Source: Cyanidioschyzon merolae (taxonomy: Eukaryota). From it: a DNA stretch of 64,000 nt. This document shows positions 1-33,774 of this stretch, piece after piece. Numbering within the stretch: position 1 is the first letter of the stretch; the number at the start of each line of letters is the position of its first letter. The stretch is from the NCBI GenBank assembly GCA_000091205.1, contig AP006494.2; one strand, written 5' to 3'. The position numbers were made by a program, and so were the translations under genes. Below the pieces are notes generated by a model. The model was not told where the DNA came from. It saw nothing but the letters and a program-made list of their open reading frames with translations, and ran no database searches.

Positions 1-541
1 CTGCAACCACGATACATGGTTTCGCACCGAAGCCGAAGCGCATACGCTCCGCCTCGCCACCGTACCTGCAATATTCTATCGCCCTACCATCGTGGCATTT
101 TGGCGCACCTTCCCGTACATTTGGGCACGCTCTAGTAAGTGCGACAGCGATGAACACCAACACATTAGCCGCATTGTCGCTCAAATCATGAGAAGGCTTC
201 CGTATGCATCATATAACGCATTTGCCCTGGGCGAAAGAACGTTACCCACATTATTTCTAGTCAGAGTGCAGAGCCGAACGAAATTTTCATGATCAGAGAT
301 GGAAAACTGGAGGACTCGATCCGAGCTTGCGACCTAGCCCACAACGCTTTATATGCCGCTGCAATGATCTTTGTATTTACAAAACATGGAAGAGCAGCGG
401 GTACAACTTCCCATGCACGATTGGTGAAGGAAAGGCCTCGAGCGATCGCGTAAATGTACTAATCCATGTAAGTGCAATGGCGTAAATACCCGTTTCCTTA
501 AAAATTACGCCGGAGACGAAACTCGCGAGTCAGCTATGTGC

Positions 542-1819
542 CTATCGCGCTGGTGCCGAGGCCAGATCTGGTGTCCATCGAGGAGATACTTGTTCTGCTC
601 GCTCAGCATCGCGAAAGACCTTCTCGCGCAACATATCCAGCAACAAGTTGGGTACATGGTCAGCCCCATCTCCAATGACTTGCTTCTGTTTGGCCAGGAG
701 CTGCTCTAACATGTGGCGCAGTGCAGTCTCCAGCTCCGCTGGTGCCTGTGGAGCCGACACGGCCGCTCCTTGTGACTCTCCATGCTCAGAGTCTGTATGA
801 CGTGTCGCTTCAGTGACTGCGGATGCTTGAACAGCTCGCCGTCGGCTACTCAGCGAGGTTGTTCCAGGTGCCGCAATACGCAGCGCACGTGCGGCTCGCG
901 AGCTCTGCTTCGCATGTTTCCGCGTGCCACTAGACGAAGACTGGGAAGCCGTGGGCTGCGTAACACAAGTTTCGACAGTACTCCCTCGATCGGTCCCCTC
1001 TAGGACGTAGCCTATCGTCTGTAGCTCCTCAGCGGTGAAAAGAGCACATAATCGCGTCGCTCTCAGTTTGCGAGGCATTCGAATCAACTGCGAGTGGAAG
1101 CTGTTCCTAACGAGTAGTACAGCATCTTCAACCGCTTTCTGAATCTCTGAACAACAAAGTTCGACTTCCCGTTCAATATTCTTGATTTCCAACGCTTTCT
1201 TCGAATAGTCCATGGCTTCGTTCACCGCGAAAGCACAGAGCGGACCAATACCTCGAGAGACGCAGAGCGCTGCGTTCGCAACGGTCGTTTCCAGCGCCGC
1301 GCGCCCCGCAGCCTGCCCGTACGGCTGCACGCACGATTCGCTGCGTGCGCGATCTGCGGGCTCTGCGCCGTACGCCACCGTGCACGCGCCGCCGGGCGCT
1401 GCACGCTGTGCACTGGACGCCTCCAGGTGCAGTTTCTCTTGGCCTGCGTGCGAAACTGTGCCTGGAACTGCCGTATCGGTAAGACTTAATGATTGAACTT
1501 GTCGTTCACTCGGATGGAGTGTCTTCACCGGACTGGAACGCTGGAGAGGTTCCGCTCCGCGTTGCATATCAGGGCGAGCCTGGGGCGTACTCGGAATCAG
1601 CTGCAATCGAGTACTTTGGGGAAAATCTCCAGCTGGTGCCCTGTGAGACGTTCGAAAAGGTTTTTGAGCTTGTTGAGAAAGACGGCGCTGATCGAGCTGT
1701 TCTTCCGATTGAGAACTCATTGGCCGGAACGATCCACCGCAACTATGACTTGTTGCTCCAGCATCAACTCCATATTGTCGGTGAGGTCGACTTTTGCGTG
1801 CGACACTACTTGCTGGCAC
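542..1819 (-). CDS. Hypothetical protein. The true CDS may be shorter, for example starting at Met ~1213 (MDYSKKALEIKNIEREVELC...). The N-terminal 200 aa are low-complexity and overlap the prephenate dehydratase start on the other strand.
   Basis: Long ORF in the six-frame track. The C-terminal half looks helical/coiled-coil. No family recognised. The 5' part overlaps a strong + strand gene (1489..2514) and a + strand GC-rich ORF. Confidence 0.3.
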   Translation of the reverse strand: MPASSVARKSRPHRQYGVDAGATSHSCGGSFRPMSSQSEEQLDQRRLSQQAQKPFRTSHRAPAGDFPQSTRLQLIPSTPQARPDMQRGAEPLQRSSPVKTLHPSERQVQSLSLTDTAVPGTVSHAGQEKLHLEASSAQRAAPGGACTVAYGAEPADRARSESCVQPYGQAAGRAALETTVANAALCVSRGIGPLCAFAVNEAMDYSKKALEIKNIEREVELCCSEIQKAVEDAVLLVRNSFHSQLIRMPRKLRATRLCALFTAEELQTIGYVLEGTDRGSTVETCVTQPTASQSSSSGTRKHAKQSSRAARALRIAAPGTTSLSSRRRAVQASAVTEATRHTDSEHGESQGAAVSAPQAPAELETALRHMLEQLLAKQKQVIGDGADHVPNLLLDMLREKVFRDAERAEQVSPRWTPDLASAPAR

Positions 1820-2514
1820 TTGAGGGCGTCGAGTTGAAAGATGTGCGCGTTGTCCAGAGTCATCCGATGGCGCTTGCGCAGTGTGAAAAGTTCCTGTCCG
1901 AAAACGGACTTACCCGCGAAGTAGCGCTGGATACTGCAGGCAGTGCACGTCTCCTGCGCGATAAGGGCTATCGGGATCGTGCGGCTATCGCAGGGGCTCG
2001 TGCCGCGCAAATCTACGCTCTGAATATCTTGCGTGAAGATATAGAGGATGAACCTGAGAACTTCACGCGTTTCCTGATTCTGGCGCGAACGCCTTGCGCA
2101 GCGCCACCGCTTGGGGTACCGGCCAAGACATCGATCGCCTTCTCGCTGATCAACACGCCGGGAGCCCTATTCAAGGCGCTCTCGGTCTTTGCTCTCCGAG
2201 ATATTGATCTTACCAAAATTGAGTCCCGCCATTTGAGGTCCCTTCGACATCTGCGTTCCCGGGAGAGCGCGCAGCTCCGTGCAAGTTCGACGAACGGTAG
2301 GTCGGATACGCTTGCGTCCATTGCCAGCAGGGGAGTATCGGACAACGCCGACGTGGAGAACGTTCCAGATCGGCGTCGATGGGAGTACCTTTTTTACCTG
2401 GACATATCTGCCAGCCTCGCGGATACCAAAACGAATAACGCGCTTAACCACCTCGCAGAGATTACGACTTTCATCAGGGTACTGGGGAGTTACCGGCGTC
2501 ATTTGGCCGAGTAA
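1489..2514 (+). CDS. Prephenate/arogenate dehydratase (PDT domain plus C-terminal ACT-like domain)
   Basis: VAYQGEPGAYSE...VLPIENSLAGTIHRNYDLL...VVQSHPMALAQC are classic PDT-domain signatures. The C-terminus (SIAFSLINTPGALFKALSVFALRDIDLTKIESR) is an ACT regulatory domain. Assignment rests on established motif knowledge. Confidence 0.8.
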   Translation: MIELVVHSDGVSSPDWNAGEVPLRVAYQGEPGAYSESAAIEYFGENLQLVPCETFEKVFELVEKDGADRAVLPIENSLAGTIHRNYDLLLQHQLHIVGEVDFCVRHYLLALEGVELKDVRVVQSHPMALAQCEKFLSENGLTREVALDTAGSARLLRDKGYRDRAAIAGARAAQIYALNILREDIEDEPENFTRFLILARTPCAAPPLGVPAKTSIAFSLINTPGALFKALSVFALRDIDLTKIESRHLRSLRHLRSRESAQLRASSTNGRSDTLASIASRGVSDNADVENVPDRRRWEYLFYLDISASLADTKTNNALNHLAEITTFIRVLGSYRRHLAE

Positions 2515-3629
2515 TGCATCGCCTAGTTCTCGGCGAAGGACTCGCATTGAACTTGTGGAACGCAGCGGATGCACGCAAAAGCCATGCGTCTTCTCCGCTA
2601 CAGCGTCCTGATCCGGTGCAGCGTTCGCGATATCGATTCTTGGCCGAAAACTTGCACAGCTTCAGACACGCTTCATCGCTCAAACGCGAATGAGCAAGAG
2701 CGGCCACGTCCGCTGCTCCTCGGTTTGATCGCTGGCCCCGATGACCAGGGGTTCCCTCCGCCCCAACCGCCCGTGTCCAGTTGCACTGCACGTAGGGACG
2801 TCCTTACGCTAATACGCGGGCCCTTGGCACAGAATCCATGGCGATTCTCAGCGTCCAGCGCGACCTCTTACGTTGTTGCCGACAGCGCGGCCGTATATAA
2901 GCACTGTGTCGCGCTCACAACAACAGCAACACCAACGCGTCCATGCTCATGTAGATGCCTTTTCGGCGGAGAAATTCGTCTACGGCCACCGATACATTTT
3001 GCGTAAAAGCATATCACAGAAAGCCCATCGCAAGTCTCGAACCTGAAAAGCCATCCAAGGTCCTCCATAGCCTCCGACGTAAAGCATGCCACAAGCACAT
3101 TGCGTGCTGTCGATTGGAGCACCTCGACAAGCAGCACGCATCCAGCTTTCGTGCGACCTCTAGGCGCCGCAAGCAAGGCCACGTTGCTGTGAAACTGCAC
3201 TGAATTCATGCAATGCCCGCGATAGACGCTGCACCTGTTGGGTTATCGGACAAAGGAAGCCTCAGCCTATCAAAAGGAGACTCATCTGGTGCTAGTTGAA
3301 CGTAGAACGCGCTGTGGAGAAACTGCAATACCTGTTGGGACGCCGTATTCGCGCCACCTCGGGTGCCGGGTTCAGTCGACGCACGACACGCACATTCGAC
3401 GCCTTCCGAGAATCGCGTACCGCTGCGCACCGCCGCGACGCTTCACGCCAGTCGCTGGACGCTGGGGCGGCGGCTTCCATGGACTCTCTGTCCGCTTTGC
3501 TGGGAAGCGGACACCGCGGCGGCGGCGGCGTCGATCAAAATCCTTGGGGTGGTACCCGGGTTTGTCGGCGGCGTCCGGAGCAGAAGCAAAGTCAATTCTG
3601 ACGTTGTGCTTTACGCGTGAACACTGCGT

Positions 3630-5705: not shown

Positions 5706-6378
5706 AACCGTGCGGCAAACGCGTGTACGTTCATTTTATCCCAGATCTCAGCACTGGGTACAGCGCTACTGTTCGGCATGCGGCGGCGTTCCTGGCCCAG
5801 AGCCTGGAGGCAGTCCATTTGCACGACGTTGCGGCGATACCGCAGTGCACGCTCGGTTCTTTTCGACTAGTTTCGAGCGTAAGCGGTCCTCAAGACTTGA
5901 AACATAAACAGGAGCGTTATTGAACTCGAGACACGACGCGCAGTGCCACTGCTGGCGAGCACAACGACGCTGTGCCAAGAGCACCGCCACGTCCCGCGGC
6001 GTGCGGTGCCATGCTAGGCAGCCGCCTCTGCGACCGCCCACTCTCCAGACAGTGCAGTGGCCACGCACAGCACTTGTTGCGATCGTCCTATGCTTTGTTC
6101 GTTCTCCTGTAGCGTATTGGCTCGATGATCCTAACCAGAGTGTCCAGATCTGCGAAAATCACTTGCTTCGGAGCTATAATAGCGCCGGCTCCCAAAATTT
6201 CGCCCGCGTTCCCGCTCCTGAACAGTGCCATACTTTTAGCGACTGCAACACACCGCCATGCACATCACAACGTCTCCGCAGACAGTAGTCGTCATCCGGA
6301 TCCCGTTGCACACGGATGCAGTGCAGAGGAACGATGCGCGCACCAGCAAACGCCTTTCAGAAAGCGAACGACGCCAGC

Positions 6379-6660
6379 GGTGTAGAGTAGTGGCGGCAAC
6401 CGCGCCCTGGACAATACGTCTCCAGCTTAGGTGCAGACGCCTCCTCGTCTTTCTCGACCGGCCACCTACTACTGCCTCCAACTTTTTCTCATATAGTTCC
6501 ACTTTGAGTGATTGTCCGACAAAATTCTCTCTGGTCAGCTCCGCAGGTCTTGTATCCATCATTGCACCAAGCCCGGAGACTAACCAACAAGTCACTTGCG
6601 GCCTTCCGAGAAAAGATAACGAATTAACGGTACATTAACGAAGAAGCAACACCAATAGAG
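6379..6660 (-). mobile_element. Solo 3'-tail fragment of the TnpB/Fanzor-like element family, truncated at the RuvC-III region where the LINE-like element begins
   Basis: Minus-strand translation ...PAELTRENFVGQSLKVELYEKKLEAVVGGRSRKTRRRLHLSWRRIVQGA matches the copy-1 tail ...PPEWTRENFIGQPLKVELYAKKFEEVVCGRSRKTRRRLHVSWRRFVYGA. Upstream, only FVN of the NRDFNAAINI motif remains. Confidence 0.55.
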
Positions 6661-9600
6661 GACTCTACAATAGGAAAAGAGACCCAACCAGATACGGAGA
6701 GGGAGGCACAAAGGCCTCATGATCCACCTAGATGCAAAATAACCAGAGAAAGCAGCTCAGGAAAGAGCCCGAAGAAGAAGAAGGCCAACGAGAAAAAATA
6801 GATGAATAGAAAAAAGAACTCCCGAACGAGCCCATCACAACTTGTTCCCCGAAAGAGCACCCCAGCAGGAACTCAAGAAAGCTGCCGCCAAACCAAGTCA
6901 CCTACTCACAGCGCTGAAGATGCGAAAAGCCGTGCATACAAATCTTTAGACCAATTGGCACGCGAGTATGTAGATGGGAATCAGAAGATTGCCAGAGAGC
7001 TGGGACTGCTTGCACCAGAACGTAACAGTTGCAAACCTCAGTACCTGAAACGACGTACCAAAACTCGGATTGATGAATGCCACCGACTCTATAAAATCGT
7101 CAACCGCACCGCCATACGCGCCAACGCCGGAGACAAGGAAGCGAAGGCAGCGCTACCGGTGCCACAGGCGCAACATGAAGAAGCTATCAAAAGAAAGAAG
7201 AAACTTTCCAGAGAAGACAAACGAGAGGATCGAAACCGCAGAATCGCCTCCCTGGCGAAATCTATGTTGGAGAGCACCAACGAAGATGAGACCTGGCGCT
7301 ACATTCGATCGAGACTGGACCCACCAAAAAGTGCTTGGGGCTCACACCAATCGTTTATAAGAAAGCGCTGAGGACGGAGAGTGCCTCAGTGAATGAGGCC
7401 TGGACGGACCACGGCACAGAATTACATGAAGACGCAACTGGGCACTGCCAAGACAGAATCTATTGGCACCAATGTGCTGCCAAACTACAGCGCCTCGAAC
7501 CGGTACCGGAATGGAACGACCCAATCTTCTGGCCTGAATCTGTTCGGACCCTGCTATGCTCAAGCAACCGCAAAACACCTGGCATCGACGGTATCTCTGC
7601 GGAGTGGATGATACTGGTGACCCCAGAAGACGGGACAACAGGGACACCATCGATACCAGATGAACTTGACACAAGCTTAGGCAAACGCCTTTTGGAGCTC
7701 ATTCAACGCATGTTTGAAGAGGCGTACATCCCGGATGTATGGAGGACTGCCGAGGTCGTACCGATCCTCAAAAAGGACTCCCACACATACACAGACATGA
7801 ACATCTACCGGACTATGCGCCTCATCCCGTCAATCATGAAGCTACTTTGCGCCATGCTCACGAACCGGATCCAGAGGCGCCTCGAGGAACGCAAGTTCTT
7901 CGCCCCAGAACAGGCTGGATTCCGGAGCCGCGAGGAGTGCATGAGCCATGCCCTGACCCTCATTGAAGTGGCGCAACGTCGCTTCATTAGCGACCAACAA
8001 CCAGCTTACGTATGCTTCATCGACTTCCAAAAGGCCTTGGACCCGGTCCCGCATGAGGCTCTATTTCTGAAGATGCAACGAGCCGGAGTCTCCGGAAAGT
8101 GCTTAGCGTTCTTCCGTGCGCTCTATGCAGACTCGTGGATGCGCATCCAACTGGGCGACTGCTCAAGAACCCCTTCCATAAGAATCCACCGTGGACTGCG
8201 ACGGGGCGACCCCACATCCCCGCTCCTTTTCAAAATCTTCATCAACGATCTGCTGAACATCTGCAGACAATACGGGCTTGAGGTGCCGTGGATAGACTGT
8301 GGAGATGCCCGATGAGGAGCCCTCACATAGGAACCGCCTCGCAGGCCGTCTATTTGCGGACGATGTCGTGCTGTTGGCACCCGCCCCGGGAACGCTTGCG
8401 GCTAGCATGGAACAAGTCAGCGCCTGGGCCGATCGCTGGGAGATGAGCATAGGAGCATCGAAGTGCGGCGTCATGGTCATCCATGGAGACTCGCAGAGCA
8501 TTCGCAATCGCTCGTGGCGGTTGCAGAATCAGGAAATTCCGATCGGGGAAAAATATCGCTACCTGGGGGTCTGTCTCACGCCGACGCTCGACGAAAAGGC
8601 ACACGTTGACGAGATGATCGCCAAGATGCATAGACGTACAGCGATCGCACGCCCAGTCCTATCCGACCTATCCCCTTAGCAATCCGTACCAGGGCACTAA
8701 GGATGTGTATCATCCAGCCTGCGACCTGGGGTGCTGAATGGTGCGGCATGAAGCACCCAAATGCCTCGCGTCTGCAGACAGCCGCCAACAGGGCAATGCG
8801 ACTCGTTGTAGTTGGATGCTCAATGCAGAGCAGAGCAACCAACCCGCTGGCACTCGGACTTGAACTCCAAATAGCCTCGATAGAAGCGATAGCGGCAGGC
8901 TGCCGGGCACGCATATGGGCCAAAAGGGCCCACCATGTACACCTGGTTCAGTCGGAGTTTCATGCAGACCCCAACGCACCGCAAAAACACTTGGATGAAA
9001 TCAACGCAGATTTGGCTGAAGCGCCTCTTAGGAGACAACACGCTCCAATCGTTCCCCAGAAATATAGAATTCTCCCGTCTCCTGAAGCGAACGGTCCAAA
9101 CAACAGTACGGGAATGTAGACATGCAGTCAGTCGCGCGAGTGACGCCGGCTTGACTCTATACTGGAACTACAACCTAGCATACACATGCAAGTACTGGTG
9201 GGAGGCGCTGGGGTTCCCGGGACTTGCTCGCGGCAGCCAGTGGCTCGCCAAAATCCGCGTTGGTGGCTTCTGGCTGGCACCGGCTCTAAGCCGTATAGGA
9301 ACACCGGAATCGCACTGGGAATCACACTGTCCCTGCTGTGGAGACGAGATCCCCGAGACGATGACATATTTAGGCTTACAGTGCCCGCGCTGGAAACAGG
9401 AGCTGGACGTCACCGTGATATTCAAAGGCCGGACACTCACTTTGAGTGTAGCACTGGCAACTGATGGTCTGTTAACGGAGCCTCAGCGCTCATTAGTTGC
9501 GAACAAACTCACACTCTACCTTCTAGGCGGAAGGTCCAGCGAATCGGATGCGCACACGGGCCCAGTGCTCTCTGCGCCTACCTACTGGTGGGTGTCAAGC

Positions 9601-10030
9601 AGAAACCCGCATTGCCAACCGACAACAACGCATTCCATGCATGATCACGAAGGAGAGAGGCGGCTCCCAGGATTCATTCTAACAGTCAAGTTTCTCCAGC
9701 GTGTCGTGCGGCGAAGACAAGCCTGCATCCGCAGACTATCCAAGCACAAACTGACGATGAGACCGGATTCTACGTCGGGTGAACCATGCCTCGAGCCGAC
9801 GCCCTCTGTGGTATGGAAAAGCCGTTCTGTCTCCGTGCAGCGACCGCACCGGCGCTTTAGGCGCCATTGCTGTCGCTTTCGGCAGGCTCGGCACACGATA
9901 GGACGTATGAAACGACCAGAATATCCAAAACGAAGTACAGGTAATGTAACTTGAGTGTAAGGGGTTGATGGATACCTCACCGCGCACTGAAAAAACACAA
10001 AAAGAGAGAAAGAAAAGAAAAATGCGCACA
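6660..10030 (+). mobile_element. Degenerate non-LTR (LINE-like) retrotransposon: basic N-terminal ORF, RT domain, CCHC-like knuckle, A-rich 3' tail
   Basis: ORFs 6802..7371, 7335..8315, 8299..8679 and 8935..9954 are collinear but in different frames. RT motifs FIDFQKALDPVPHEAL and FADDVVLLAP (FADD box). The downstream ORF has HCPCCGDEIPETMTYLGLQCPRW. The element ends in the A-rich stretch 9990..10030. Confidence 0.7.
7335..8679 (+). pseudogene. Reverse transcriptase gene of the LINE-like element, interrupted by a frameshift near 8300
   Basis: The RT fingers/palm motifs are split over two overlapping frames (7335..8315 and 8299..8679). Confidence 0.65.
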
Positions 10031-10493
10031 ATCGGAGAACGCTGGCACAAGGAAACGTTTTGTTCATTCTAAAAATCGCACTCGTTAAGCGCACCTGGGA
10101 GATCAGGCGGTCACCTGACACGACGTGCATGTCGCCATTGAAGGGAAACGCGATCCTGATCAGGAGCGTACTGCTCTACTGTACAAAATTTTATTTGCGT
10201 TAAAGTCGTAGCAAAATACAGTTTTTCAATTCATTTGTGTTTCAACCCTCAAACAAGTCTAGTCAAGTGTTTGTTCGCAGTATATTATATAAGGGTTCAA
10301 AGAGCGTTCTTTTTCAAAAAACTAAAAAAAAGGAAACCTATGAAAAAGCAAGTCGACGATCCTGGAGGTCCAGGGCCGCAGGCTGCTAGAAAAAAACAAA
10401 AACACTGCCGAGTCCAGAAGAAAATGAAGAGAAGGAGGACTGAAAGGGGAGGCTCTACGTCGAAGGCGGCAAGAAAGACAACTGTACGACGAG

Positions 10494-12842
10494 ATGGTGG
10501 TGAAAGCCGGTCTTCTTGAACATATCAAGGATCCGTACAGGGAAAAGTTGCGAGACGCTATCAAAAAACGTCTCGATTCGTACTCCAAGAGTATTGTCAA
10601 GGCGTCGTCAGGACTGATGCATGTGACGAGGGAGATGTATGAAGACGTGACGCACATCGGAACGGTCGAGATTCCGGACGAGTTTTTCGACAAGACCTTT
10701 ATTCGTCATGTGATGCTTGGTACAGAGGAAGCACGGAAGGAAAATGAGCTAGTGCATGCCCTCCACGAAAACTTCGCGGAATTCCGCTTCGAGGGCACTC
10801 GGTACAAGGGTGACTCGGATATGTACACATATGGGGCAATGAAGTACATTACGAACCTGAAGAACCATTTGACAGAGAACCTCGAACGTTTCATGAAACG
10901 CGTCGTGTTTGCACTCTACCCAGGCATCTCTTGCAATGGAAAATGGGCGATTATCAATGGCATCACGAACGATCGAAAGTATGAAGATGAGATCGAATTT
11001 GTCGACAGGAAGGCGCCGAGAGTGAGCGCGAAAGAAGCTTCTGCGATCCGCGCGGTTTTACAAGAGCATCGTGCGCTACTGGGGCTGGCGAATCCAACAG
11101 ACAAGATATCAGAGTTGAAAAAAGATAAGGAAAGATACTATCGCCTCGTCCTGCGGTATTTCGTGTTTCTGGATCGTTAACTCGAACGCTAAGCGGAGAT
11201 GAAGCTGAGTGAAGAGACAAATGAAGAGTGGGAGAGACGGAAGGCTTTCCTAATGGGGAAGCGCTTCAACGGCGTTCCAATGTGCAAGATCAAGTCACAT
11301 TTTGTGACTATCGACTCCGCAGTCCTTCATGGCATCATGAAGGAGATCAGTCCGGAGTTCAGTGTCAGCAGGGAGGAATTCTCCGGTGAAAACCGGGAGA
11401 CGCACTGGAAGAATATCTTCGATTTCAAACGCCTCTAAGTAAGCAAACAAAGGGTATTTACAGGGTTGATCGAAACAGATGGAGTAGCCTTGTGTGTACA
11501 CTATCGGCGCTTGAAGACAGATCGTCCAGCACCGCCCGTTACGAAGGATGGAGAAAAGGAGGAGGCTGGTCCTGCGACACAGGAGGTGGAGGATAATGTC
11601 CTTGTCGTTGACGCGGCGAAGGATGAGGATCAGAAGGAAGCGGGTCTTGCGATGCAGGAAGTGCATGAGAAGGACCTTGTCGTTGACGTCACGAAGTATG
11701 AAGATGAGAAGGAGGCGGAACCTGCGATGCAGAATGTGGAGGATAACGACCTTATCGTTGATGCGGCGGAGCATGAGGAAAACAAAGAGGAGGATTCTGC
11801 GACGCAGGAAGTAGAGGATAACGACCTTGTCGTTAACGCGGAGAAGCATGAAGAAACCAAGAAGGCAGGTCCTGTGACACAGAAAGTGCAGGGTAACGAC
11901 TTTGTCGTTGGCGCGGACCCTGGGAATACGAATATTATAGCCGTCGCTGTACCCAAGCGTGCGGAAGATGGTGCTGACGGTAACTTGCGTCAGAAAGACA
12001 TGCGTCTGTTGAGGTTCTCGAGAGCAAGATACTATCGAGAATCCTGTATAATGAATGCGAGGAAGAAAATCGTCAAATGGAATTCAGGAATGAAAGATCA
12101 CCTGGAAGCTTTGAGCGAGGTGACGAGTCGAGGAGCGGACTTTAAAGCTTTTCGGGAGTTCATGAAAGTTCGCGTTGCCCATTGGGATGCACTGGGGGAG
12201 GAGTATACCAAGCCCCCGGTGGGCTCGTTTGCGTATGAATTTGTATTTTGGGAAGCAGCGGGCGTTCGCGAATTTTTTCAATCAATTGAGTGCCCTGAAG
12301 GATGATGAAAGTCAGAGGCTCGTAGTAGCGTACGGGGCAGGGCAATGGAAGACCCAAAAAGGAACTACGCCAGCTCCAACGACGAGGGTGTACAAGGAGT
12401 GCGCAAGGCGTTTTGTTACAATACCTGTAGATGAGTTCCGAACATCGTATACACACCACGACTTGGGGTGTACACTTCAGAGCGTGGAGTTAGAAAAGTG
12501 CCCGCGGAGCCTTGAGGATATAAAAAAGTATGGACCGCTGACGGTAGAGCAAAATGGAAAGGATGTCGAAAGTTCGTGGACTACTTGCATTAATAAGTAG
12601 AACCAGTGATGGTAAGAAACGTATGGAGTTTGTGAACCGAGATTTTAATGCCGCTATCAATATAAGGAAATGTGCGGTGCTGGAGAATAGACCTCCAGAG
12701 TGGACAAGAGAGAACTTTATTGGACAACCTCTCAAAGTGGAACTATATGCGAAAAAGTTTGAAGAAGTGGTGTGTGGCCGGTCGAGAAAAACGAGGAGGC
12801 GTCTGCACGTCAGTTGGCGACGATTTGTCTATGGCGCCGGCC
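10494..12842 (+). pseudogene. TnpB/Fanzor-like nuclease gene, originally about 780 codons, broken by two in-frame TAA stops (11178, 11193) and at least two frameshifts (about 12200 and about 12560)
   Basis: Pieces are 10494..11180, 11199..11438, 11466..12305, 12175..12600 and the first 96 codons of 12554..14959. Where copy 1 reads FLDR*LER*AEMKL, copy 2 reads FLERELERQAEMEL, so these are point nonsense mutations, not introns. Confidence 0.6.
11580..11885 (+). repeat. Four tandem 75-bp (25-aa) acidic repeats ([14 protein letters not shown]...Q) inside copy 1, directly abutting RuvC-I
   Basis: Units [25 protein letters not shown] / [25 protein letters not shown] / [25 protein letters not shown] / [25 protein letters not shown] are followed by [14 protein letters not shown]. 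Copy 2 has a single unit. Confidence 0.8.
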
Positions 12843-12889
12843 GCTACTACTGCACGCCGTTGGCGTCTTTCGACTTTCGAACGGCGTTG

Positions 12890-14959
12890 ATGATGCCCTG
12901 CGTTCGTATGAGGCGTTCGTTTTCGAAAATAGCGCTGTGTTCCGCTGCGGCTTTTGTTTCGTCTGCAACGGTGCTGTTGCTTGGCGGGTATGACTCGCGA
13001 TGGTACACCCCTTTGGTTGCGAGAGCGCACTCGGCTAGCGTGGCGTCTGTGGACCACGGGCCGTTGCCGGTGCTCGAGACGCCACCGCGTCGTCACGCGC
13101 AGCTGCGAGTGTTAAAAGAGAGCGGCATGCGTTATGAATCTGTCCAAAAACGGAAAGCCGAAGCTGGAGGCGACGGCTCATCAAAAGAGGCTATGAGTGC
13201 AGTGGTACCGAGCGCTTTGCCGGAAGACGGCCTCTTCGATATTCTCGTCGTTGGTGGCGGCGCGACCGGCTCCGGCGTTGCACTCGACGCAACGCTCCGT
13301 GGACTCCGAGTTGCTCTAGTAGAGCGGAACGATTTCGCGTCTGGCACGTCGTCTCGTTCGACGAAACTCATTCATGGTGGTGTCCGGTACTTGGAAAAGG
13401 CGTTCTTTCGTGCTGACCCTGCGCAACTAAAGCTCGTCTTCGAAGCTTTGCATGAGCGAGCGATCATGCTCCGTCAAGCGCCTCACTTGACACAACCGCT
13501 GCCGACGATCCTGCCGTGTTACAAATGGTGGGAGATCCCATTCTATTGGGCTGGGCTCAAGGCCTACGACTTTCTGGCCATCGCAGGCAATGGCGCGCTC
13601 TATATGAGCAAGTTCCTCTCGGCGGCGGAAGCGCGGCGTCAGTTTCCGACCCTTTCAGCGCGCCGTGGCCGGGACGGCGCCACCCTCAAAGGCAGTATTG
13701 TGTACTACGATGGCCAGATGGATGACGCGCGATTCAATGTGACGCTTGCAGTGACGGCGGCGCTACACGGGGCAGTGATTGCAAATCACACTGAAGTTTC
13801 GGGCTTGATCAAGGATGCCTCAACTGGAAAGGTCATTGGCGCAACAGTTCGTGATCGTTTCACCGGAGAAGAATTTCCGGTCTACGCGCGAGTGATTGTG
13901 AACGCAACCGGCCCGTTTGCGGATCGGATACGAGCGATGGACGAGGGACCTGAGGCGCTCGGTCCCCAACGCATGATAGTTCCGTCATCTGGGGTGCACG
14001 TTACTCTGCCCAGTTACTATTCTCCGGAAGGCATGGGTTTGATTGTACCAAAAACGCGCGACGGTCGGGTTGTCTTCATGTTGCCATGGTTGGGATCGAC
14101 AATTGCCGGCACCACGGATTCAAGCACGGAGATTACGGACATGCCACGTCCGCATGAGGCGGAGATTGAGTTTATCTTAGACGCGCTTCGTGATTATCTG
14201 AACGTGGAAGTGCGTCGAAAGGATGTTCAGAGCGCATGGAGTGGTATTCGACCGCTTGCAATAGACCCCAAAGCGAAGGACACACAGAATATCCTTCGTG
14301 AGCACACAGTCCACGTCTCTGGCTCGGGTCTGCTGACCATCGCGGGTGGCAAATGGACGACTTACCGAAAAATGGCACAGGACACTGTGGATACTGCTAT
14401 CAAAGTTGCAATGTTGGAGTCTCGCGTGAAGCACAAGTGCTTGACAGAGAAGGTCATCCTCACCGGAGGTCATACTTATGACCCGTCGTATTTCGCTTTT
14501 CTCACGCAGCACTATGAAAGAGTGAAATACTCTGTCAGTAAGGGTGCCAAACTCCAGACCACGACGCTGGACGTAGACATAGCGCAACATCTTGCTCGAG
14601 CCTACGGAGATCAAGCTTACAAGATCTGCGATATTGCGAGCAGGGAAGATGCTGGTTACGGCAAACGCATTGCGCATGGCTACCCGTATATTGAAGCAGA
14701 GGTCGTGTACGCAGCTGAAAACGAATACTGTGAGACAGCCCAGGACTTTTTGGCGAGACGCTCGCGTCTTGCGTTTCTGAACGCCCGGGCGGCGAAAGAG
14801 GCGCTTCCCCGCATCGCTGAGATTCTCGCTGAGATCCACGGCTGGAGTCGCACCCGCTTGCAGACGGAAATGAAGGAGGCAATGGAGTTTCTCGAGACGT
14901 TTGAGTCCGGTCGTACGACTGGTGAGGTCGGTGAACAGGTTGAAGCAGTGGCCGCATAA
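12890..14959 (+). CDS. FAD-dependent glycerol-3-phosphate dehydrogenase (mitochondrial GPD2/GUT2-type), about 690 aa
   Basis: DILVVGGGATGSGVALDATLRGLRVALVERNDFASGTSSRSTKLIHGGVRYLEKA is the FAD/GlpA-family N-terminus. Start placed at the in-frame MM at aa 113 of the ORF-track ORF 12554..14959; the upstream 112 codons belong to the transposon tail. Confidence 0.82.
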   Translation: MMPCVRMRRSFSKIALCSAAAFVSSATVLLLGGYDSRWYTPLVARAHSASVASVDHGPLPVLETPPRRHAQLRVLKESGMRYESVQKRKAEAGGDGSSKEAMSAVVPSALPEDGLFDILVVGGGATGSGVALDATLRGLRVALVERNDFASGTSSRSTKLIHGGVRYLEKAFFRADPAQLKLVFEALHERAIMLRQAPHLTQPLPTILPCYKWWEIPFYWAGLKAYDFLAIAGNGALYMSKFLSAAEARRQFPTLSARRGRDGATLKGSIVYYDGQMDDARFNVTLAVTAALHGAVIANHTEVSGLIKDASTGKVIGATVRDRFTGEEFPVYARVIVNATGPFADRIRAMDEGPEALGPQRMIVPSSGVHVTLPSYYSPEGMGLIVPKTRDGRVVFMLPWLGSTIAGTTDSSTEITDMPRPHEAEIEFILDALRDYLNVEVRRKDVQSAWSGIRPLAIDPKAKDTQNILREHTVHVSGSGLLTIAGGKWTTYRKMAQDTVDTAIKVAMLESRVKHKCLTEKVILTGGHTYDPSYFAFLTQHYERVKYSVSKGAKLQTTTLDVDIAQHLARAYGDQAYKICDIASREDAGYGKRIAHGYPYIEAEVVYAAENEYCETAQDFLARRSRLAFLNARAAKEALPRIAEILAEIHGWSRTRLQTEMKEAMEFLETFESGRTTGEVGEQVEAVAA

Positions 14960-16519
14960 TGACGTGAGCGCAGAGCGTATGTATTTCAAAAGTATCATCT
15001 TCTTGATCGACGAGACTGGCAAGTCACCTTGGTAACTAGGAGCGAGCGCGTGCCCTTTTACCCAGTCCCTGGTTCCAAACTGGAAACGATCGGGCGTACG
15101 GATGGATTTCGTATGCGTTGAACAGCGTCGCTGGTGCTTAGGCTTGGAGCGTTCGTCCTCATGAGCTGCTGAATGCTCTGCGATCAAGATATCTGTAAAC
15201 ATATCGTGCATGAGTGGCTGATCATGCGTGGCACCGAGAGCGCGCTGCAGCTGGATGAACCTGGAATCGACAAGCTGCGGTCTAGCTTGCACGCGGTGCC
15301 GCGCTAGAGTATCCTGGGTTCTTGGCAGCTCTCGAAACTGAGTTTGTACTGGACGGGAGACTCCCGAAGGCGGACACGTTAAGAAAAAGTAGCTCGCTGG
15401 CTGTACCGGACATTGACACTGCTTTTCCTGTTTCTCAGTGCCAAGAAACGAGTAATAGACAATAACGCGCATTTCCCTGAGTTGCTATCGTGGTTTTCGG
15501 CACCAGGCTGAGCCGACGGCTGAACACACGAGCACGACAGTTGACCCTGCTCCCAGAATCCTGTGCATCGATGCATCACCGCTGCGCTGCGCACTTGTTC
15601 GCCATCATTTCTTCTCGGGATCGAGCGCATTCCCAGGCGCATCTTTCGCTTGAACATGCCAGTCGCAGTGCAGTAACGAAACTGCATGAAATGGACGCGC
15701 ATGGGAAGCGCGATGTTCACGAGAGCGTCGTCACGCGCTGCGCCTTGTCAAAGGCAGATGCGATCAGTAACGCGACAAACGTTTTACGATCGTGGAGTAT
15801 GTCTATATATGTGTAGACCCGCCCCTAGACGCCCCCCGGCCTTTTGCGACCGGTCTCCTGTTATCCGCTTCAGTCTATGCAGACACACTTCGCGCCTGAG
15901 AGGCTACACCATGGAGTTGGATGGACCCAGCTCCTTGGGTCTCGTCTACAGAATCACACATCCTCTGATACCGATTGCGGCGTTGACTGCTCTACGTTCA
16001 CGAAGTCCTTGCGTGCAGTTCTGTTAGTTGAACTCACTATTGCAAGGGTTGCGAGGACATGTGCCCTCTGTGCCACTACAGTCTCCTGTACCTCCACTGT
16101 TCTTCTTCTTGTTTGTCACTTGCTCTCCTTGGCTCTATGGTCGGCGAGTAGAGGATTTTTCGGTTTTTTAATCGAACCCGGCGCCACCGGGCCTCCATGA
16201 TCTTTGACTTTTATATTTGTAACTTTCACTTAGATTATTTATTCTTTTTAAATGAACGCACTTCGAGAGCATCTGTTATAAACCGCGACAAAGAACTTGG
16301 TGACGCGCATCTGAGGGATGGAACACAATTCAGATGAAAGACCGCAAGTGTGCACAACGAGTGCAGTTCGTTTGTGCGCGGGGCCCTTTGGAGGTAACTG
16401 GTACAATATGTATTCTTTTCTTGCGTATTTCAGAGCAAACGATATGTCTGTTCGCACCATCGCATCCGCGCATGCGCCTTCGCGGAATACCGGGTTCAGA
16501 AGCTCTTCTCCTTTATCTT

Positions 16520-17990
16520 TTGGGACGAAATAGACAACTCTTCTAGTCTTTTAACTCAGTTTTGGTCCGCGCACGCTGAATGGAATAGAATGCTATTTGG
16601 TAGTGGATAGCACGAGATCGACGTCAAGATGCAATGCACCCTATAGATCGCAGACGAATTCAGTATAGGATATGTATTCTATGCTGACCAGTACACGGAG
16701 CACTGGATTCCTCTTTAAGATCAGTGATACTACAGTACTCTGATGGTTGAGGAACACTGAACGAAAGAAGTGCATGCGCTCTGGGACAAGAACCAATATG
16801 CCCACGGCGTGCTTGCGATCAATGCTAGGAAACGACCCGTTGATCACTTTAGGGAACGTAAAAGTGCCGATCGTAGTCGCCACGGGCGTCTCTGTTTCTC
16901 AAAGGCTTGTTTGCGTGCTCCTGGAAACACCGGGATACAGTCGCCTAGAAGAATCCCAGCTCACTCACTACCACCATCCACCGAAAGCTGAACGACAGCG
17001 TTACGGGAGCGTTGCGATCTGTGTAGAGTACAGGGACGTCGATGGGTCCCAGTCGATGAGACATCCCTCGGAAGATACCATCGAAGCGTATAAGGATATT
17101 CGTGGAGCAGGGCACCTATTGTGCGCACCATCAAACTCGAAGAGACTAACGACATCATCGACTTTTCTAGCAGCAGTGGACTCATTTGGCAGCCTCACTT
17201 TCGCTGCTAGAGAAGCTCCATCTAACAGCACCAAACTCTTTGCCGAATCATTGAAGACTTTTCCCTGACGTCCGGCGACGTCATTCTATTAAACAACATG
17301 GAATTTTACCATTCCACTTGCGTCCGAGTATTTGCCCGTACTCTCGAAGTGTAGAGCTGGTTTTCACACCCGAGTACGCTCCATGCTTCAACCCATCGAA
17401 GGAGTGTTTTCTGCTGTGAAACGTAATGATCGCTCCATCGGGCGAATTGCTGACGCGTTCTCAGCGCACGGCGACGCGGGGACACATGTGGCCTCTCTTG
17501 CACAAGTCCTACCTCCTCCGGTGATGTCCTCACCGACGAGCATAGACAAGTGCGTTCATTTGAAGAAATAAAAAATCCAAGGGAAAGTCATGTAAATGGA
17601 AATCGAAGATCCTAGAGAGGCATCATCGCCGAGTTCGACAAAAAAATCCTCTTCTCGCCAAACATCAAGCGAAGAAGAACGACTGAGAAAGGAGAAAAAG
17701 AAGAAGAAGGCAGGAGATAGACCAGAGAAATGCTTGCCTAACCAGGCGATGACGAGATTGTGGCGCCACAGCGAGCACGACTTCTAGCAATCCTTGCATT
17801 GGTGAGTTCAACCGGCGTCAATGCACGCAAAGAGCTCGTGAACCGAGAATTCAACGTCGCCATCAGTATCAGACGATTTTTGGTGCTGAAAACGAGACCC
17901 ACGGAGCTAATGCGATCCAACTTCGTGGGCAGCCCCTCAACTTCGAAGAAATACCTGAATAAACTGAAACCGATTGCAGGCGGGCGGGGG
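16520..17990 (+). mobile_element. Composite dispersed repeat, copy A (about 1.4 kb): 5' module with a DE(T/S)xF-like remnant, then the Fanzor-like 3' tail (17800..17990)
   Basis: Collinear about 70% nucleotide similarity with copy C (60520..61640) and with the reverse complement of copy B. It shares the 24-mer gccacgggcgtctctgtttctcaa with copy C. The tail translates ...KELVNREFNVAISIRRFLVLKTRPTELMRSNFVGSP...KPIAGGRGVRK. Confidence 0.5.
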
Positions 17991-18273
17991 GTCAGAAAAT
18001 GCCCGGAGGCGTCTACATGCGGGTATCTATATTTACTCTCTGTGGTCTTGAAACGTTTACCGTTTCAATGCTCACACATATTGCAACAGCCATATCGCGT
18101 CATCGCACAGGCGATGTGTCCATCGGCAACGCCTAGCTGTTGATCAAACGATCCGGCGGGCGCGATATGCCACCCTCGGAGTGCGATCAAACATCCAGGC
18201 TCACAGGCGGACGCTGCGAGTGTACTTCCCTCGCAAGCCGCTGAGGTGTGCCTAGCGCTCGCTTTGAAGCAGT

Positions 18274-21596: not shown

Positions 21597-22065
21597 GAGT
21601 TCAACAGATATGCGCAGCTCGTGCGCCCGATTTCGAATTGAAACGCTCCGAGATTCCGTTCTGCGGTGCTGTGCCCGGCGCCGCCCGGTACCCCTTTACG
21701 TGTGTCGACCCGGCGGCCGTTCAGGCGCTGCAAAGCGGGTGCATCTCTCCAGGGCACCGGATTTCCCTGTTTCGCAGTTTGTTGACACCCAGAAGGGATG
21801 TTTCCGTTTGGTCGCTTGATATCAGCGCTCGGAGTAGCATCCATCGTTCCTCGCCCTACTTCCAAATTCCACTACCGACAGTCGCCCTCAGAGGTGCTGG
21901 TGATTTTCCACCTTATATCGTGCGTCAAGTGCCCGTCGTGAGCGGCCTCGATAGCCTGTATAGCGCAAGCGCGAATACAGTACGTAAACGGAACGGCTTT
22001 GTCATACTGCTGAAGGCGTGGGCTCGAAGTACAGGGAGCGGGATGCACCACCGAGGCAGGCGTCT

Positions 22066-26544: not shown

Positions 26545-27399
26545 CGGCAGCTATATTGATCGACTGGCGCTGTGAAGCAGCAGCGCTTTGCTTTTGCTCC
26601 GTTGCTGATTCTGCTGCGGAAACGTTGACGGACGCGTCTCAATGCTTGTTCATCGAATGGGCGCATTAGTCGCTGCTCTGACATACAACACAGATTCCCC
26701 ATGTTGTTCAACGTTGACGATGCATTCGATAGGGCAAGTGGCGGCACCCCGGAGACCCGCCTCCGCGCAATGGCGTGCATGGACCGCGTTCTTGATCTTG
26801 CCAATCAATGAGCTTCAGCGTGTGTCGCAGTTCATGGATGAGTGCCGATCGACAAGAAAAAGTTCAAGCCATACTCATTGACGTATCCGTAAATGTCACC
26901 GCATTCGGAATCTCTCGAAGCACAAGAAAGCAAAATCGCATCCGGGAGATGCTGGTTCGATCCATCGAGCTCAAGTCACTTTACTTGCAACGCCAATACG
27001 GACACCGTCTGGCATAGCAGAGTCCCGTCGACGGCAGACAGGCTGTATTCTATGCACCAAATCATGCCACCAGCGCCGAAGAGACCCATTCCAGCGTCTG
27101 GTGTACGACGTCTCGAAAACCGAGGTCATCCGTGATGCGGCAAAGCCGTTCCGCTTCCGTCTGCGCCCGCAGCAGGTACTCACGGCAACTTCAGCACCTG
27201 GAGGATCATAGGAATGAACCATGATCCTTAAAGGAAAGTATGGGTGGTTGCTGGTGAAGAGCTTTACGATCAAGTGAGCCATAACTGACGTTCTCCTGGA
27301 CGTCGATGGCCATGGAGCACAATCGAGGATGCCCAGGTTCCCGTGAACGATGCGACATCTGCATTTGCACACATGTCAGTGAAACAAGAAATGTCCCAC

Positions 27400-28900
27400 G
27401 ACCACTTATTGTAAATGAGTACCACAAGCGCACACGCCTCACAGCTTTTTCTGACCGGCCGCCTGCAATTAGTTTCAGTTTCTGCTTGTACACATCGAGC
27501 GTGAGAGGCTGCCCCACAGGTTTGCCTCGTGTCAGCTCTGCGGCTCTTTTCTGCAACACCACAAATCGTTTGATATTGATGACGGTGGTAAAGTCTCAGT
27601 TCACGAACTCCATGCGGGTATTTTCTCTGGGAGAACCTATCAGTGGAAAGAGTCCTCGAACTCGTGCCATTTTGTGCGGTGGCAGCTATACGCGCTTTTC
27701 TATCGCGAAAGCGCTCCGCTGCCCTCTCTCGAACTCGAACTTCTATAGCATACATATCAGCTCATTCCCTGTTTTTTTGCATGAACTACTTCTTCATGCC
27801 CTTCGGTGAGGACGTTCCCGAAGGAAGCAGGACTTGCGGAAGAGAGACCGCATGTGTCTCGGTGTAATCGCGTGTCTCCGTGTGTTGAACGCTTCAGCGA
27901 TTCGCCCAGTGGAGCGATCGTCACGTTTCATAAAGACAATGCTCATTAGATGCGGTTGAACCACGGAGTGTATAGACGAACGTAAAGCAGCTCTATTCTC
28001 GGATAGATTCGGCAAAAGCTCGAACGCGATTGGAACGGTTAGATGCGACGTCGCCCAATAGAATGACGTCGTCACGGTTCTCGAGACAAGTGTTCAATGA
28101 TTCGACAAAGTGGTTGGTGCTGTTGTATGGCCTTTCTCTACGGGCGAAACTGAGTCCGCCAAATGAGTCCACTAAAGCTAGAACAGATGATGATGCCGTT
28201 GGTCTCTTCGCGTTCGATGGTAGGCACAACGGGCGCCCTGCCCCGCGAATACCCATGTACGCTCCGAGCGCTTTATCCGAAGCAAGTCTCATCGACTGGC
28301 AAAACAAATCGACGTCCATGTGCTTCATTCGGATCGCAACGTTCCAGGAACTTTGCTGTGGGTGTGATTTCGGTGGAAGATGGCCGTACATGACATTGGT
28401 CGTCTTTTTTGTTACTGTATCCCAGTGTTTTCAGGATCACACGAACTAGCCGCCGAGAATCAGAGATGCACGTGACGACTATAATCCTCTGCTTTGCTTT
28501 CCGTGAGGTAATCAAGGAGTTAATTTTTTGTACAATTCATCGCAAGCAGTCTTCAAGATTGTCGGTTTTCGGCACGGAGCACATATACTTGTTTCTTTCA
28601 GTGTTCATCAAGCATCAGCGTGCTGGAGCGTGACGAATCTGAAGGAGGCAAAGCAGCACTCCCAGCGCTCTACAGTAAAGAGTATATATCCTACCGGAAA
28701 TTCGTCTACGATCTATCGAATACATTGCATCATGATGTCGACCGCCTGATGTATATTGTGAAAAAGCATCCGATTCCATACAGCGGGATGAAAGTAATAG
28801 AGTTGAAACACTGGAGAAGAGAATGAGCGGTGGCACTCATAAACGCTGCACTGCGCTCGATGCGCGACGCAACAGCGCGGCGTCGACGTCATCTGCAGTG
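27400..28900 (-). mobile_element. Composite dispersed repeat, copy B (minus orientation), ending in the Fanzor-like 3' tail (27400..27620)
   Basis: Minus-strand translation ...RMEFVN*DFTTVINIKRFVVLQKRAAELTRGKPVGQPLTLDVYKQKLKLIAGGRSEKAVRRVRLW. The upstream module matches copies A and C (for example KRDDRSTGRIAEAF vs KRNDRSIGRIADAF, and ...RRFVLPVDETCFG). Confidence 0.5.
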
Positions 28901-31900: not shown

Positions 31901-33774
31901 AAGAGAAAGACTTCATGTTGAGCATGGATACCAGGTTCAAGGGCATCGCAGCCGTTACCATTCCACTTATTCAAGAGGACGGAGCCAAAGACGTGAAGAG
32001 AAAGCAGAGGAAGCCGCTGAAGTTTTCTGGGGCTTGGTATTATCGGGTGTCGATCATAATGGACTCCAGGAAGCATAGCAATAGGTGGAATGTCGGCATA
32101 CGGATCCACCTGCATGTTCTGAGAATCATGTTGCGTTGAAGCAGGGGCGTTGCTTTGTGTGTTTCAGTTGGAGAGTCGTTGAGCGTGCAGATAGCACGTA
32201 AGGACCCCCTTTGGCTGGTTAGCATGCGATTGCGCCAGACTCGCCAGCGGTTTCGGTTGTGCATAAGTACAAAGCGTGAATTCGCCAACTTGTGCAGTGA
32301 GTCGGAAAAGCAAAAGACAGAGAAGGCGCGTCGTTTAATCGGAGCCTATGACGCTGGACATACTGTAACGCACGGGGGCTGGTTTCCTGCGCCTTCGACA
32401 TGACGCGGCAACGCGTGAAAGAATCGATTCTGCACGATTCGCATCCATGAATTAGGGACGATTTACGCGGATCTTGGATACATATCCAAGCTGAAACTCG
32501 TCGAGAAGAAGAACGTGAAACAGAGCAAGGTGCACGAGATGGTATTTGGTTAGCTGACTGAACATCAGATTGCGAGCCAGTTGAAGGTGACATGCTTCCT
32601 TGCGCTCGATTCCGCTGGGAACAATGCGCGCAAGCACTTTCTGCACTGGGACTTGAACCCCTCGATCAGCCTACGGAAAGCACTGGCGCCTATGGAGCAC
32701 TCAGCGGTTTTTTGTCCAGCGAGTTTTCGCGGCAGTCTTTTCGTACTCAGGGTAAGCACGGGGCAGAAATGCCGTAGACGTGCAGAGAAAAAAACGAGTG
32801 GCCAGGAGAGCGCATTGGATTACCGCCTGAAGTAATGCACTGGTATGGTACGATGTAGCAATGCAAAAAGCATACAGGACCGGATGTATACGCAGAGAAC
32901 GCCTCTTCTGGGCAATTGCTGGACACTCATGGTAATCCATTATTCGATAGGACAGCGTTTGCGTCTCCCATAGGAATGAGACGCTGCGCGATCCCAGCGC
33001 ACAGTGGAGACCGATTACTGTTTCCTGCTAGATGATGAATGCTACTGCCCCATTGGTCCGTGTTGTTGATTCGGAAGCGGCAAACGCTCCGATGAAAAGG
33101 ACCTGCAGAATCGCTATCTGAAGCGGAAAGGTTCTCGCGTGTTGCCGCTGTGCGGTGCAACGCAGGAGCTCTTCGGCGCGGCTGCTGCGACGGCCAAGTT
33201 TTTCCATTTGTTTCGCCGTTTCCGTGAATCGAGCACCTGCTGCACAAAAATTCCACACACCGGAATCGGACCTGGTGCGGATTATGAAGAGACCCTCAAT
33301 AACGAGGCGCGAATTGCTGGCGCTGCAAGCATTGCCGATCATTCCGTGGATTCGCTCTGAGCGGGAGTAAGCCGCTGGCGAGTCACATGGCCACTGTACC
33401 GCATACGACCTGCGACATCGAGTGACAAACGAGGTGCTTTACGTTTTCCACGGGAACCCGAGATCCATTCGATGCATACAGCCTGGCGCTGGGACAGCTT
33501 CAAACCCGCGCAATGGACCGGGTGCATCGACTAGGCAGTGGCCGCAGTTCTGCGTACGATTCGATGCGCTTTGCTGAACACCAATGTCGTATAAAGCGCC
33601 GATGGATAGCTGAGGTTTTCCGAGCAATCCGTTAGCGAGGGTCTTCGGTTTGCAGGCACGGGATATCCTAGTCCGTGGTGCATACTCCTGGCGAGTCTCT
33701 AGGCCGTTCGCGTGCTCGGCAGCCGCGGAGGTACCGCGCGAGGCACCGGTCGCTTTTCCCGCCAACCGTACGCA

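Follow-up and report, generated by a model that had tools for sequence, protein, structure and literature searches.

Within a 64-kb stretch of Cyanidioschyzon merolae 10D (contig AP006494.2; hereafter the window, with coordinates counted from its first letter), a short segment typified by positions 12600-12829 (+) recurs several times over. This segment is the 3' end of the gene for Fanzor1, a TnpB-like RuvC nuclease, carried by the CMe-1A transposon. An earlier note, made from the letters of the window, had counted six copies, four of them solo, and had taken the segment for a candidate guide-RNA scaffold, conserved at the nucleotide level and ending at one boundary common to all copies. We report an analysis of the segment, its right terminus and its relatives in metagenomes, and we consider it probable that the 3' end is conserved as coding sequence and has been multiplied through deletion derivatives, which kept the right end of the element and were themselves propagated.

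CMe-1A and its Fanzor1 gene in the window

The window carries an ORF of 457 residues whose product is identical to BAM80819.1/XP_005536855.1 of C. merolae strain 10D. One Fanzor1 family, CMe-1A, has been described in C. merolae (Bao & Jurka 2013, Mob DNA 4:12; PMC3627910). It is given there as approximately 150 copies that match a 3169-bp consensus at about 80% identity each, without terminal inverted repeats (TIRs), unassigned to a class in 2013 and with its target-site duplication undetermined. The published consensus (PMC3627910, supplementary file 2), mapped onto the window by blastn, matches two long copies at 79-87% identity along their length. Copy 1, at 10060-12886 (+), is 5'-truncated and corresponds to consensus positions 631-3169 at 84-87% identity; copy 2, at 39828-43214 (+), is nearly full-length, with 39828-43187 matching consensus 2-3141 at 79% identity in blastn and its right end placed at about 43214 by alignment. 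Copy 1 and a further copy at 6351-6567 both end at the last base of the consensus. The window copies also share the termini of the family, CGATGACAAAACGTTT... on the left and ...GAAAGGCG on the right, and resemble it in having no TIRs. The left terminus CGATGACAAAACGTTT... and the right terminus ...GGCG were derived independently from metagenomic copies, and both agree with the published consensus.

A Fanzor1 protein is recognised here by the pattern D ... [TS][TS]-x-x-(Zn finger) ... RD in its C-terminal half, which represents RuvC motifs I, II and III. These motifs, including FVNRDFNAAINIR, occur in order in the conceptual translation of copy 1, the protein is 66-86% identical to Fanzor-like proteins in the databases, and it matches the published CMe-1 protein; the motifs and the match to CMe-1A bear out the earlier assignment of the element to the Fanzor/TnpB type. 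A Pfam scan of the Fanzor proteins found no family, the precomputed tag being PF26935/DUF8286. Three-frame translation reveals the Fanzor1 gene of copy 1 to be a pseudogene, with stops and two frameshifts. The repeated segment, which we call the tail, comprises the last 77 or so Fanzor1 codons, that is, the RuvC-III motif FVNRDFNAAINIR and a C-terminal extension of about 60 codons that runs to ...RRLHVSWRRFV.

A 67-residue tail peptide, searched against the window by tblastn, finds itself at 12617-12817 and further matches at 6422-6565 (-) (E 3e-21), 42933-43109 (E 2e-17), 27425-27616 (-) (E 5e-15), 17826-17990 (E 4e-13) and 61495-61602 (E 3e-8). All six places in the earlier count thus contain the segment, and a seventh, absent from that count, lies at 15826-15993 (-) (E 4e-6). 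The parts of the gene do not recur equally. When the window is mapped with a conceptual Fanzor protein of 798 residues assembled from copy 1, the N-terminal two thirds are found twice (10494-12287 and 41103-42573), the RuvC body three times and the last 80 or so residues seven to eight times. The third RuvC body, at 31909-32679 (+), is a diverged and decayed relic covering residues 469-725 at 35% identity; it too was missing from the earlier list and may be a remnant of the lineage behind the tail-only copies. Measured on the CMe-1A consensus, window copies reach a depth of 5.84 at positions 2801-3000 and 4.78 at positions 3001-3169, compared with 2.0 in the body, so that the tail stands at 2.4-2.9 times the element body. 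Five window copies consist of the tail only, and three include a body.

The over-representation is therefore real within the window, as the earlier note had it, though it does not extend to CMe-1A proper across the genome. In a metagenomic sample that is biased to CMe-1A-like tails, 23 of the 26 anchor tails not cut by a contig end belong to a full-length CMe-1A, and among the unselected bystander copies in the same 270 kb one element is full, three to four have only the tail and two are fragments of the body alone. From these counts the excess belongs to an older lineage and its two derivative families, which are described below.

At its other end, the first 635 bp of CMe-1A constitute a separate element, TE-N2_CMe, with about 70 copies, and in the passages concerned over-representation is given only for this 5' part (PMC3627910). 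Isolated fragments resembling TE-N2_CMe (consensus 48-534) lie in the window at 9517-9953 (-), 21818-22027 (+) and 27085-27175 (-), and among metagenomic CMe-1A copies approximately half carry the 5' 635-bp part and half begin at about consensus 630-650. Two internal repeats were also seen. Just ahead of RuvC-I, in-frame 75-bp tandem repeats at 11537-11917 (+) encode an acidic unit of 25 residues, present about five times in copy 1, three or four times in the protein P0001 and once in the published consensus. In the left part of copy 2 a 96-bp unit (consensus 222-318) is tandemly triplicated at 40057-40345 (+) with 98-99% identity; the units are far more alike than the element is to its relatives, which points to a recent amplification.

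Right terminus and coding conservation of the tail

Scanning of metagenomes with alignment of the tail peptides yielded 371 confirmed tails, the best 80 of which fall into 37 distinct genomic loci; several hot-spring metagenomes hold contigs that are 99% identical to the window. The earlier note had proposed that the tails be aligned together with their downstream sequence, and with these 37 loci and 400 nt of downstream flank the alignment gives a sharp common end beyond which the flanks differ at once. Column identity is 0.73-0.95 up to 12884, falls to 0.62 in the bin from 12884 and to 0.39 from 12894. Each of the 37 loci ends at ...TTCGAACGGCG or a variant of it, as does the published consensus (...GAAAGGCG), and the flanks diverge directly after this end, which lies at 12886-12892. 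In this window CMe-1A has its true right end at 12886.

The tail does, then, adjoin a sharply defined right terminus, but the position proposed for it, about 12842, marks something else: it lies 10 nt past the ancestral stop codon, where the similarity between the proteins ends. Nor is there a single boundary for all copies. Those of the older lineage part from CMe-1A at about consensus 3080 (window 12800-12806 or thereabouts), some 25 nt before the stop, whereas CMe-1A copies reach 12886.

The stop codon of the family is TAG at 12830-12832 (+) in the consensus of 35 loci and in the published consensus, both of which have the reading frame ending ...RRLHVSWRRFV-TAG; in copy 1 it is TAT. Owing to this change the open reading frame (ORF) at 12554-14959 reads on into the host gene for glycerol-3-phosphate dehydrogenase. 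This single ORF of 801 residues (+) joins the Fanzor tail to a mitochondrial-type glycerol-3-phosphate dehydrogenase, and copy 1 ends within a few bases of the first ATG codons of the dehydrogenase gene (12890-12895), which places the element in the promoter or 5' leader of that gene.

Between stop and end lies a non-coding right terminus of 54 nt at 12833-12886 (+), which contains GGCG..CGCC and a predicted terminal hairpin at about 12855-12886 and ends in ...TTCGAACGGCG. Across loci, the 54-59 nt past the stop have a pairwise identity of 0.65, which is below that of the ORF and far above that of the flank (0.36).

The mode of conservation upstream of the stop was examined through codon positions, with 21 non-redundant full-length loci aligned to the almost intact copy L005 and pairwise identity taken in 30-codon windows. 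The divergence at position 3 relative to positions 1 and 2 is 1.7-2.6 in the tail (residues 691-780) and 1.9-2.8 in the RuvC body (residues 481-690), and identity at position 3 is 0.72-0.79 and 0.71-0.77, respectively; no extra constraint on synonymous sites was found in the tail in this test. Furthermore, the intact orthologues P0035, P0045 and P0046, only 42-43% identical, retain the Fanzor C-terminus, given as '...NRDFNAAINIRKC.IL.(D/E)RP..L.RS.F.G..LVH.VG...(K/R)R*' and, in shorter form, as the motif 'RP..L.R.NF.GQ.L'. A third position diverging about twice as fast, just as in the body, and a C-terminal motif kept in the orthologues together establish that the tail, 12600-12830, is conserved at the protein level.

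The contrary claim, that conservation was at the level of nucleotides, had been argued from the broken reading frames of the solo copies. The breaks are present, but stops and frameshifts make a pseudogene of every window copy, the two long ones included, and because the long copies are equally broken the broken frames of the short ones carry no information on this question.

Deletion derivatives and their parent element

The tails described as solo are, for the most part, not solitary. Self-comparison of the window reveals a sequence of about 1 kb preceding three of them, at 16574-17559, 28785-27781 (-) and 60571-61280, with the tails following at 17782-18017, 27430-27765 (-) and 61371-61677 (copies e3, e4 and e5). 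A frameshift-stitched consensus of six copies identifies this sequence as a DDE_3 transposase (PF13358; E 6.6e-20; score 71.9 bits, cut-off 28.6); Pfam searches with single decayed ORF fragments gave nothing, the domain being seen only with the stitched consensus. The three full units extend over 16544-18067 (+), where the DDE_3 pseudogene (16544-17560) is followed by a smaller unit bearing the tail (17548-18067); over 27378-28800 (-), with the DDE_3 pseudogene followed by the Fanzor 3' end (consensus 2737-3084); and over 60555-61733 (+), with consensus 2762-3078 and an internal deletion. All three are of one family, to which the metagenomic loci L061, L054 and L016_525 add more members. The six DDE_3 copies have a common left boundary, and the junction between DDE_3 and the Fanzor 3' end is collinear, at about residue 650-665, in e3, e4, e5, L061 and L054. 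Given the same 1-kb body, the common left boundary and the collinear junction, these copies descend from one ancestral deletion event that founded a family of about 1.45 kb.

A second derivative is a mini unit of about 0.5 kb in which consensus 790-969, covering 5' untranslated region (5'UTR) and N-terminal lysine-rich coding sequence, is fused to about 2833-3085. It occurs at 15827-16342 (-), at 17548-18017 and at loci L073 and L049, with the same junction in all four. The first of these forms part of an internal-deletion element at 15765-16342 (-), in which consensus 790-969 is joined to 2833-3082 and to the older lineage's own terminus, and self-comparison places the two window units in inverted orientation on either side of one DDE_3 body. 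The third type is a truncated CMe-1A right end at 6351-6567 (-) (consensus 2950-3169, 82.7% identity), which lies beside a non-long-terminal-repeat (non-LTR) retrotransposon.

With three tails following a DDE_3 pseudogene, and those at 15827-16342 (-) and 17548-18017 carrying a piece of Fanzor 5'UTR and N-terminus, the 'four solo tails' go back to some three ancestral events, deletions or truncations, the products of which later spread. The view that the extra copies are relics retaining the right end holds. Relative to CMe-1A, the DDE_3-plus-tail and mini derivatives of the window come from the older lineage, being about 45% identical in the tail peptide and having a different terminus, and the relevant passages of the CMe-1A paper (PMC3627910) make no mention of DDE_3-plus-tail or mini derivatives.

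Two observations concern the surroundings of copy 1. The non-LTR retrotransposon occupies 6802-10030 (+), between the truncated end at 6351-6567 and copy 1; it has ORFs for reverse transcriptase, and its 3' end is rich in A. We considered the truncated end as the left TIR of a 6.5-kb composite with copy 1 and rejected this, because inverted tails are absent from other CMe-1A loci and TIRs from the published family. At L005, the segment matching window 10063-8843 is inverted, yet it meets the Fanzor unit at the same nucleotide (10075, equivalent to L005 7673).

The parent architecture is preserved in metagenomic relatives. Locus L068 has a full Fanzor gene with a DDE_3 body directly upstream, and in four near-identical contigs from four samples an intact DDE_3 gene of 401 residues is directly followed by the intact orthologue P0046. 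In these contigs, L091-L094, the DDE_3 gene and the intact Fanzor1 of 699 residues stand within imperfect TIRs of about 30 bp that have TA at their ends, and the two genes are separated by an 18-bp tandem repeat (CGTCTCGACCATTTCG..). The right end of the composite is sharp, ...GGTGTTCCACAATTCATTTTCATGAGTATA, 184 nt past the stop, and the left end, TATACTCTGTATACTAAATAATGGAACACC, is an imperfect inverted copy of it (22 of 30 bases, by eye on aligned ends); an inverted-repeat search on L068, L091 and L092 with seed lengths of 8-10 had given no convincing TIR. The order in the intact relatives is TIR, DDE_3, Fanzor1, a structured non-coding stretch of 160-230 nt and TIR. The DDE_3 and Fanzor1 element of L091-L094 looks recently active.

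Composites of Mariner/Tc1 elements with Fanzor1 are known, examples being PUl-1 and PGv-1 (PMC3627910), and the association is also reported by Jiang et al. 2023 (PMC10530073). L091-L094 have the same arrangement as these, TIR - DDE_3 - Fanzor1 - TIR with TA at the ends. In the window the order is the same, with the DDE_3 pseudogenes ahead of the Fanzor 3' end, and the intact DDE_3 protein is 42% identical to the window consensus (E 2e-50); the window copies differ in being without most of Fanzor, and on these decayed copies neither TIRs nor TA duplications could be shown. By eye, the right end of the older lineage resembles the right TIR of the relatives. The DDE_3-plus-tail elements are best read, on this comparison of gene order and ends, as composites that have lost most of Fanzor and kept the part beside the right end.

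Competing explanations and the guide-RNA question

The history that we favour runs as follows. The tail would have been conserved because it was protein-coding while the lineages were active, and its excess in the window would reflect deletion derivatives that retained the right end and were themselves propagated: (a) the 1.45-kb element, uniting an IS630/Tc1-mariner-type DDE_3 gene with the last 130 or so Fanzor codons and the right end, in three window copies; (b) the 0.5-kb mini element, uniting Fanzor 5'UTR and N-terminus with the tail, in two inverted copies flanking one DDE_3 body; and (c) the single truncated CMe-1A end. The right end would have been retained since it is needed in cis for mobility, and, by analogy with characterised Fanzor systems, the last 125 nt or so may overlap a guide-RNA scaffold in active copies.

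Several points weigh against this reading. No TIRs or target-site duplications could be demonstrated on the DDE_3-plus-tail family or on CMe-1A, and for that reason both the transposition mechanism and the need for the right end in cis are things that we infer. Only about five independent deletions or truncations lie behind the pattern, a number too small to demonstrate a bias. Because the metagenomic tails were ranked by their likeness to copy 1 and the best 80 of 371 were used, the older lineage is under-sampled. Lastly, the fold of the consensus 3' module (z -3.4) and a stem like that of the relatives mean that an RNA role of the last 125 nt may aid retention.

The most serious alternative, which we nonetheless think unlikely, is that the tail was kept and multiplied as the scaffold gene for a Fanzor guide RNA (fRNA), with the tail-only copies as solo fRNA genes and their 3' flanks as guides. 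There is precedent: Fanzor fRNAs derive from non-coding 3' sequence that adjoins or overlaps the right end, and they may co-fold with the end of the ORF, and about 20 fRNA-only copies exist in C. reinhardtii (PMC10530073). The position in CMe-1A, at the 3' end of the nuclease gene by the right end, fits both Fanzor fRNA and the omegaRNA of TnpB, and strong structure is predicted for the consensus 3' module. The last 132 nt of the published consensus fold at -57 kcal/mol (z -3.40; none of 200 shuffles as good), with a helix of about 13 bp in which CAGUAGUGGGUGGC, from the last 25 codons, pairs with GCCGCCACUACUG of the non-coding end. In copy 1 this predicted long-range helix spans 12766-12851 (+), with 12766-12784 pairing with 12835-12851, and a guide-RNA scaffold, if there is one, would most probably overlap this part. 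It is kept in copy 2, at 79% identity (z -2.47), and in part in copy 1 (z -1.78); the truncated copy folds poorly (z +0.67). Two sequence variants of the terminal hairpin occur, ACGUCGUUCGA-CUU-UCGAACGGCGU and CGUUUUUC-UUUU-GAAAGGCG; their folding in different registers suggests selection for the hairpin as such.

Three intact relatives provide further evidence of the same kind. Between stop and right TIR they share a conserved non-coding stretch with a consensus fold of -28.5 kcal/mol and a compensatory change in 16 of 49 predicted pairs, which, with three sequences, is indicative only. At its base their inner stem (CAGCAAGGG/CCCUUACUG; UAGAGG/UCUCUA) looks by eye like the CMe-1A helix, the differences being compensatory, which is no more than a lead; CMe-1A differs from them by an insertion of about 70 nt in the putative stem-loop.

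Against this, CMe-1A has just 54 non-coding nt past the stop, where the ApmFNuc element of a mimivirus has about 200 nt beyond its ORF (PMC10530073), and the third codon positions of the tail are as free as those of the rest of the ORF. The structure and covariation analysis that the earlier note had suggested, when run within the family on 35 loci with the consensus-derived structure, gave covariation no better than that of shuffles (111-195 of 500 reach the observed values), and RNAalifold on the same loci gave one compensatory pair and an energy of -4.1 kcal/mol. Scanned against Rfam, positions 12300-13000 produced one match, at chance level. Tails of the older lineage are, by eye, without the long-range helix, L016_525 having the 3' strand but not its partner; the tail-only copies are decayed like their surroundings, at 65-70% identity throughout. 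Diverging flanks directly after the common end, which guides would produce, are expected of any transposon. CMe-1A also differs from characterised fRNA systems in having neither within-family covariation nor excess synonymous conservation. The copy-number excess needs no RNA role of the 3' module to explain it.

On the predicted folds, a role as RNA or as single-strand DNA is plausible for about 12762-12886, as is a scaffold overlapping that interval; an RNA role for 12600-12760 is unsupported. CMe-1A can also be compared with the non-autonomous Fanzor1 carriers of Helitron2 type in Chlamydomonas (CRe-1, CRe-2 and CRe-3), to which it is likened by its lack of TIRs, its 3' terminal hairpin and, both by eye, a palindromic 5' terminus, AAAACGTTTT, and a 9-nt match in which GACAAAACG at the 5' end (consensus 5-13) is the reverse complement of CGTTTTGTC at about 3093-3101 (window 12816-12824 or so). 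The 3' inverted match in CMe-1A, however, lies about 60 nt from the end and not 20-30 nt. The left flanks of CMe-1A are T-rich and the right flanks start with TT in about two thirds of loci, judged on few loci with termini placed by eye. We regard Helitron2-type ends for CMe-1A as a lead only.

Slightly less credible again is a neutral account, in which the excess arose by chance from a handful of truncations and deletions and the 3' end has neither a cis nor an RNA role. Only some three to five ancestral events underlie the pattern, all copies are decayed pseudogenes, and body-only fragments exist too, namely 31909-32679, L005 2431-2706 and L049 7287-7499. Each of the two derivative families is nevertheless found at several loci unrelated to one another, where the internal junction is identical and the ends are defined, from which it follows that the derivatives spread after the deletion and must carry the ends needed for mobility; moreover, the same end is kept in all types of derivative, and the right boundary is sharp in 37 loci.

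That the tail lies within long TIRs of a DDE_3 transposon, two to each element, is very improbable and as a general explanation largely refuted, for although 15817-16263 (-) and 17548-18024 (+) form an inverted repeat of about 450 bp (65% identity) around the DDE_3 body at 16544-17560, this is one element only, the left ends of e4, e5, L061 and L054 and the CMe-1A loci L004 and L005 are without an inverted tail, the inverted unit also stands alone at L073 and L049, and the intact relatives have TIRs of only about 30 bp.

The CMe-1A family, the association of Mariner with Fanzor1, and 3'-end guide RNAs and solo fRNA copies for other Fanzors are already published. What is possibly new is the pair of derivative families in C. 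merolae, the exact structure of the right end and the intact metagenomic composites of DDE_3 and Fanzor1. The practical value is modest: the right end of CMe-1A is fixed in the window at 12886 and the lost stop codon is placed. For the family, the apparent conservation at the nucleotide level is the footprint of a protein C-terminus, and the excess of tails is accounted for by a few propagated deletion derivatives.

A bolder proposal, to which we give little credence, is that the last 125 nt or so of CMe-1-type elements is a working fRNA module into which the ORF has grown, and that tail-only derivatives act, or acted, as extra guide-RNA genes. Were this true, the module would consist of the stem joining the final 25 or so codons to the non-coding end, together with the terminal hairpin, and the tail-only derivatives would be no inert relics but a dispersed guide library, supplying flank-derived guides to Fanzor1 in trans. 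Two results may be of further use: a region of 125-190 nt is delimited as the place to look for the guide RNA of this Fanzor1 clade, for which a literature search found no characterised fRNA, and the nearly identical intact metagenomic composites of DDE_3 and Fanzor1, with their clean ends, are candidates for a still-active pair of transposase and RNA-guided nuclease.

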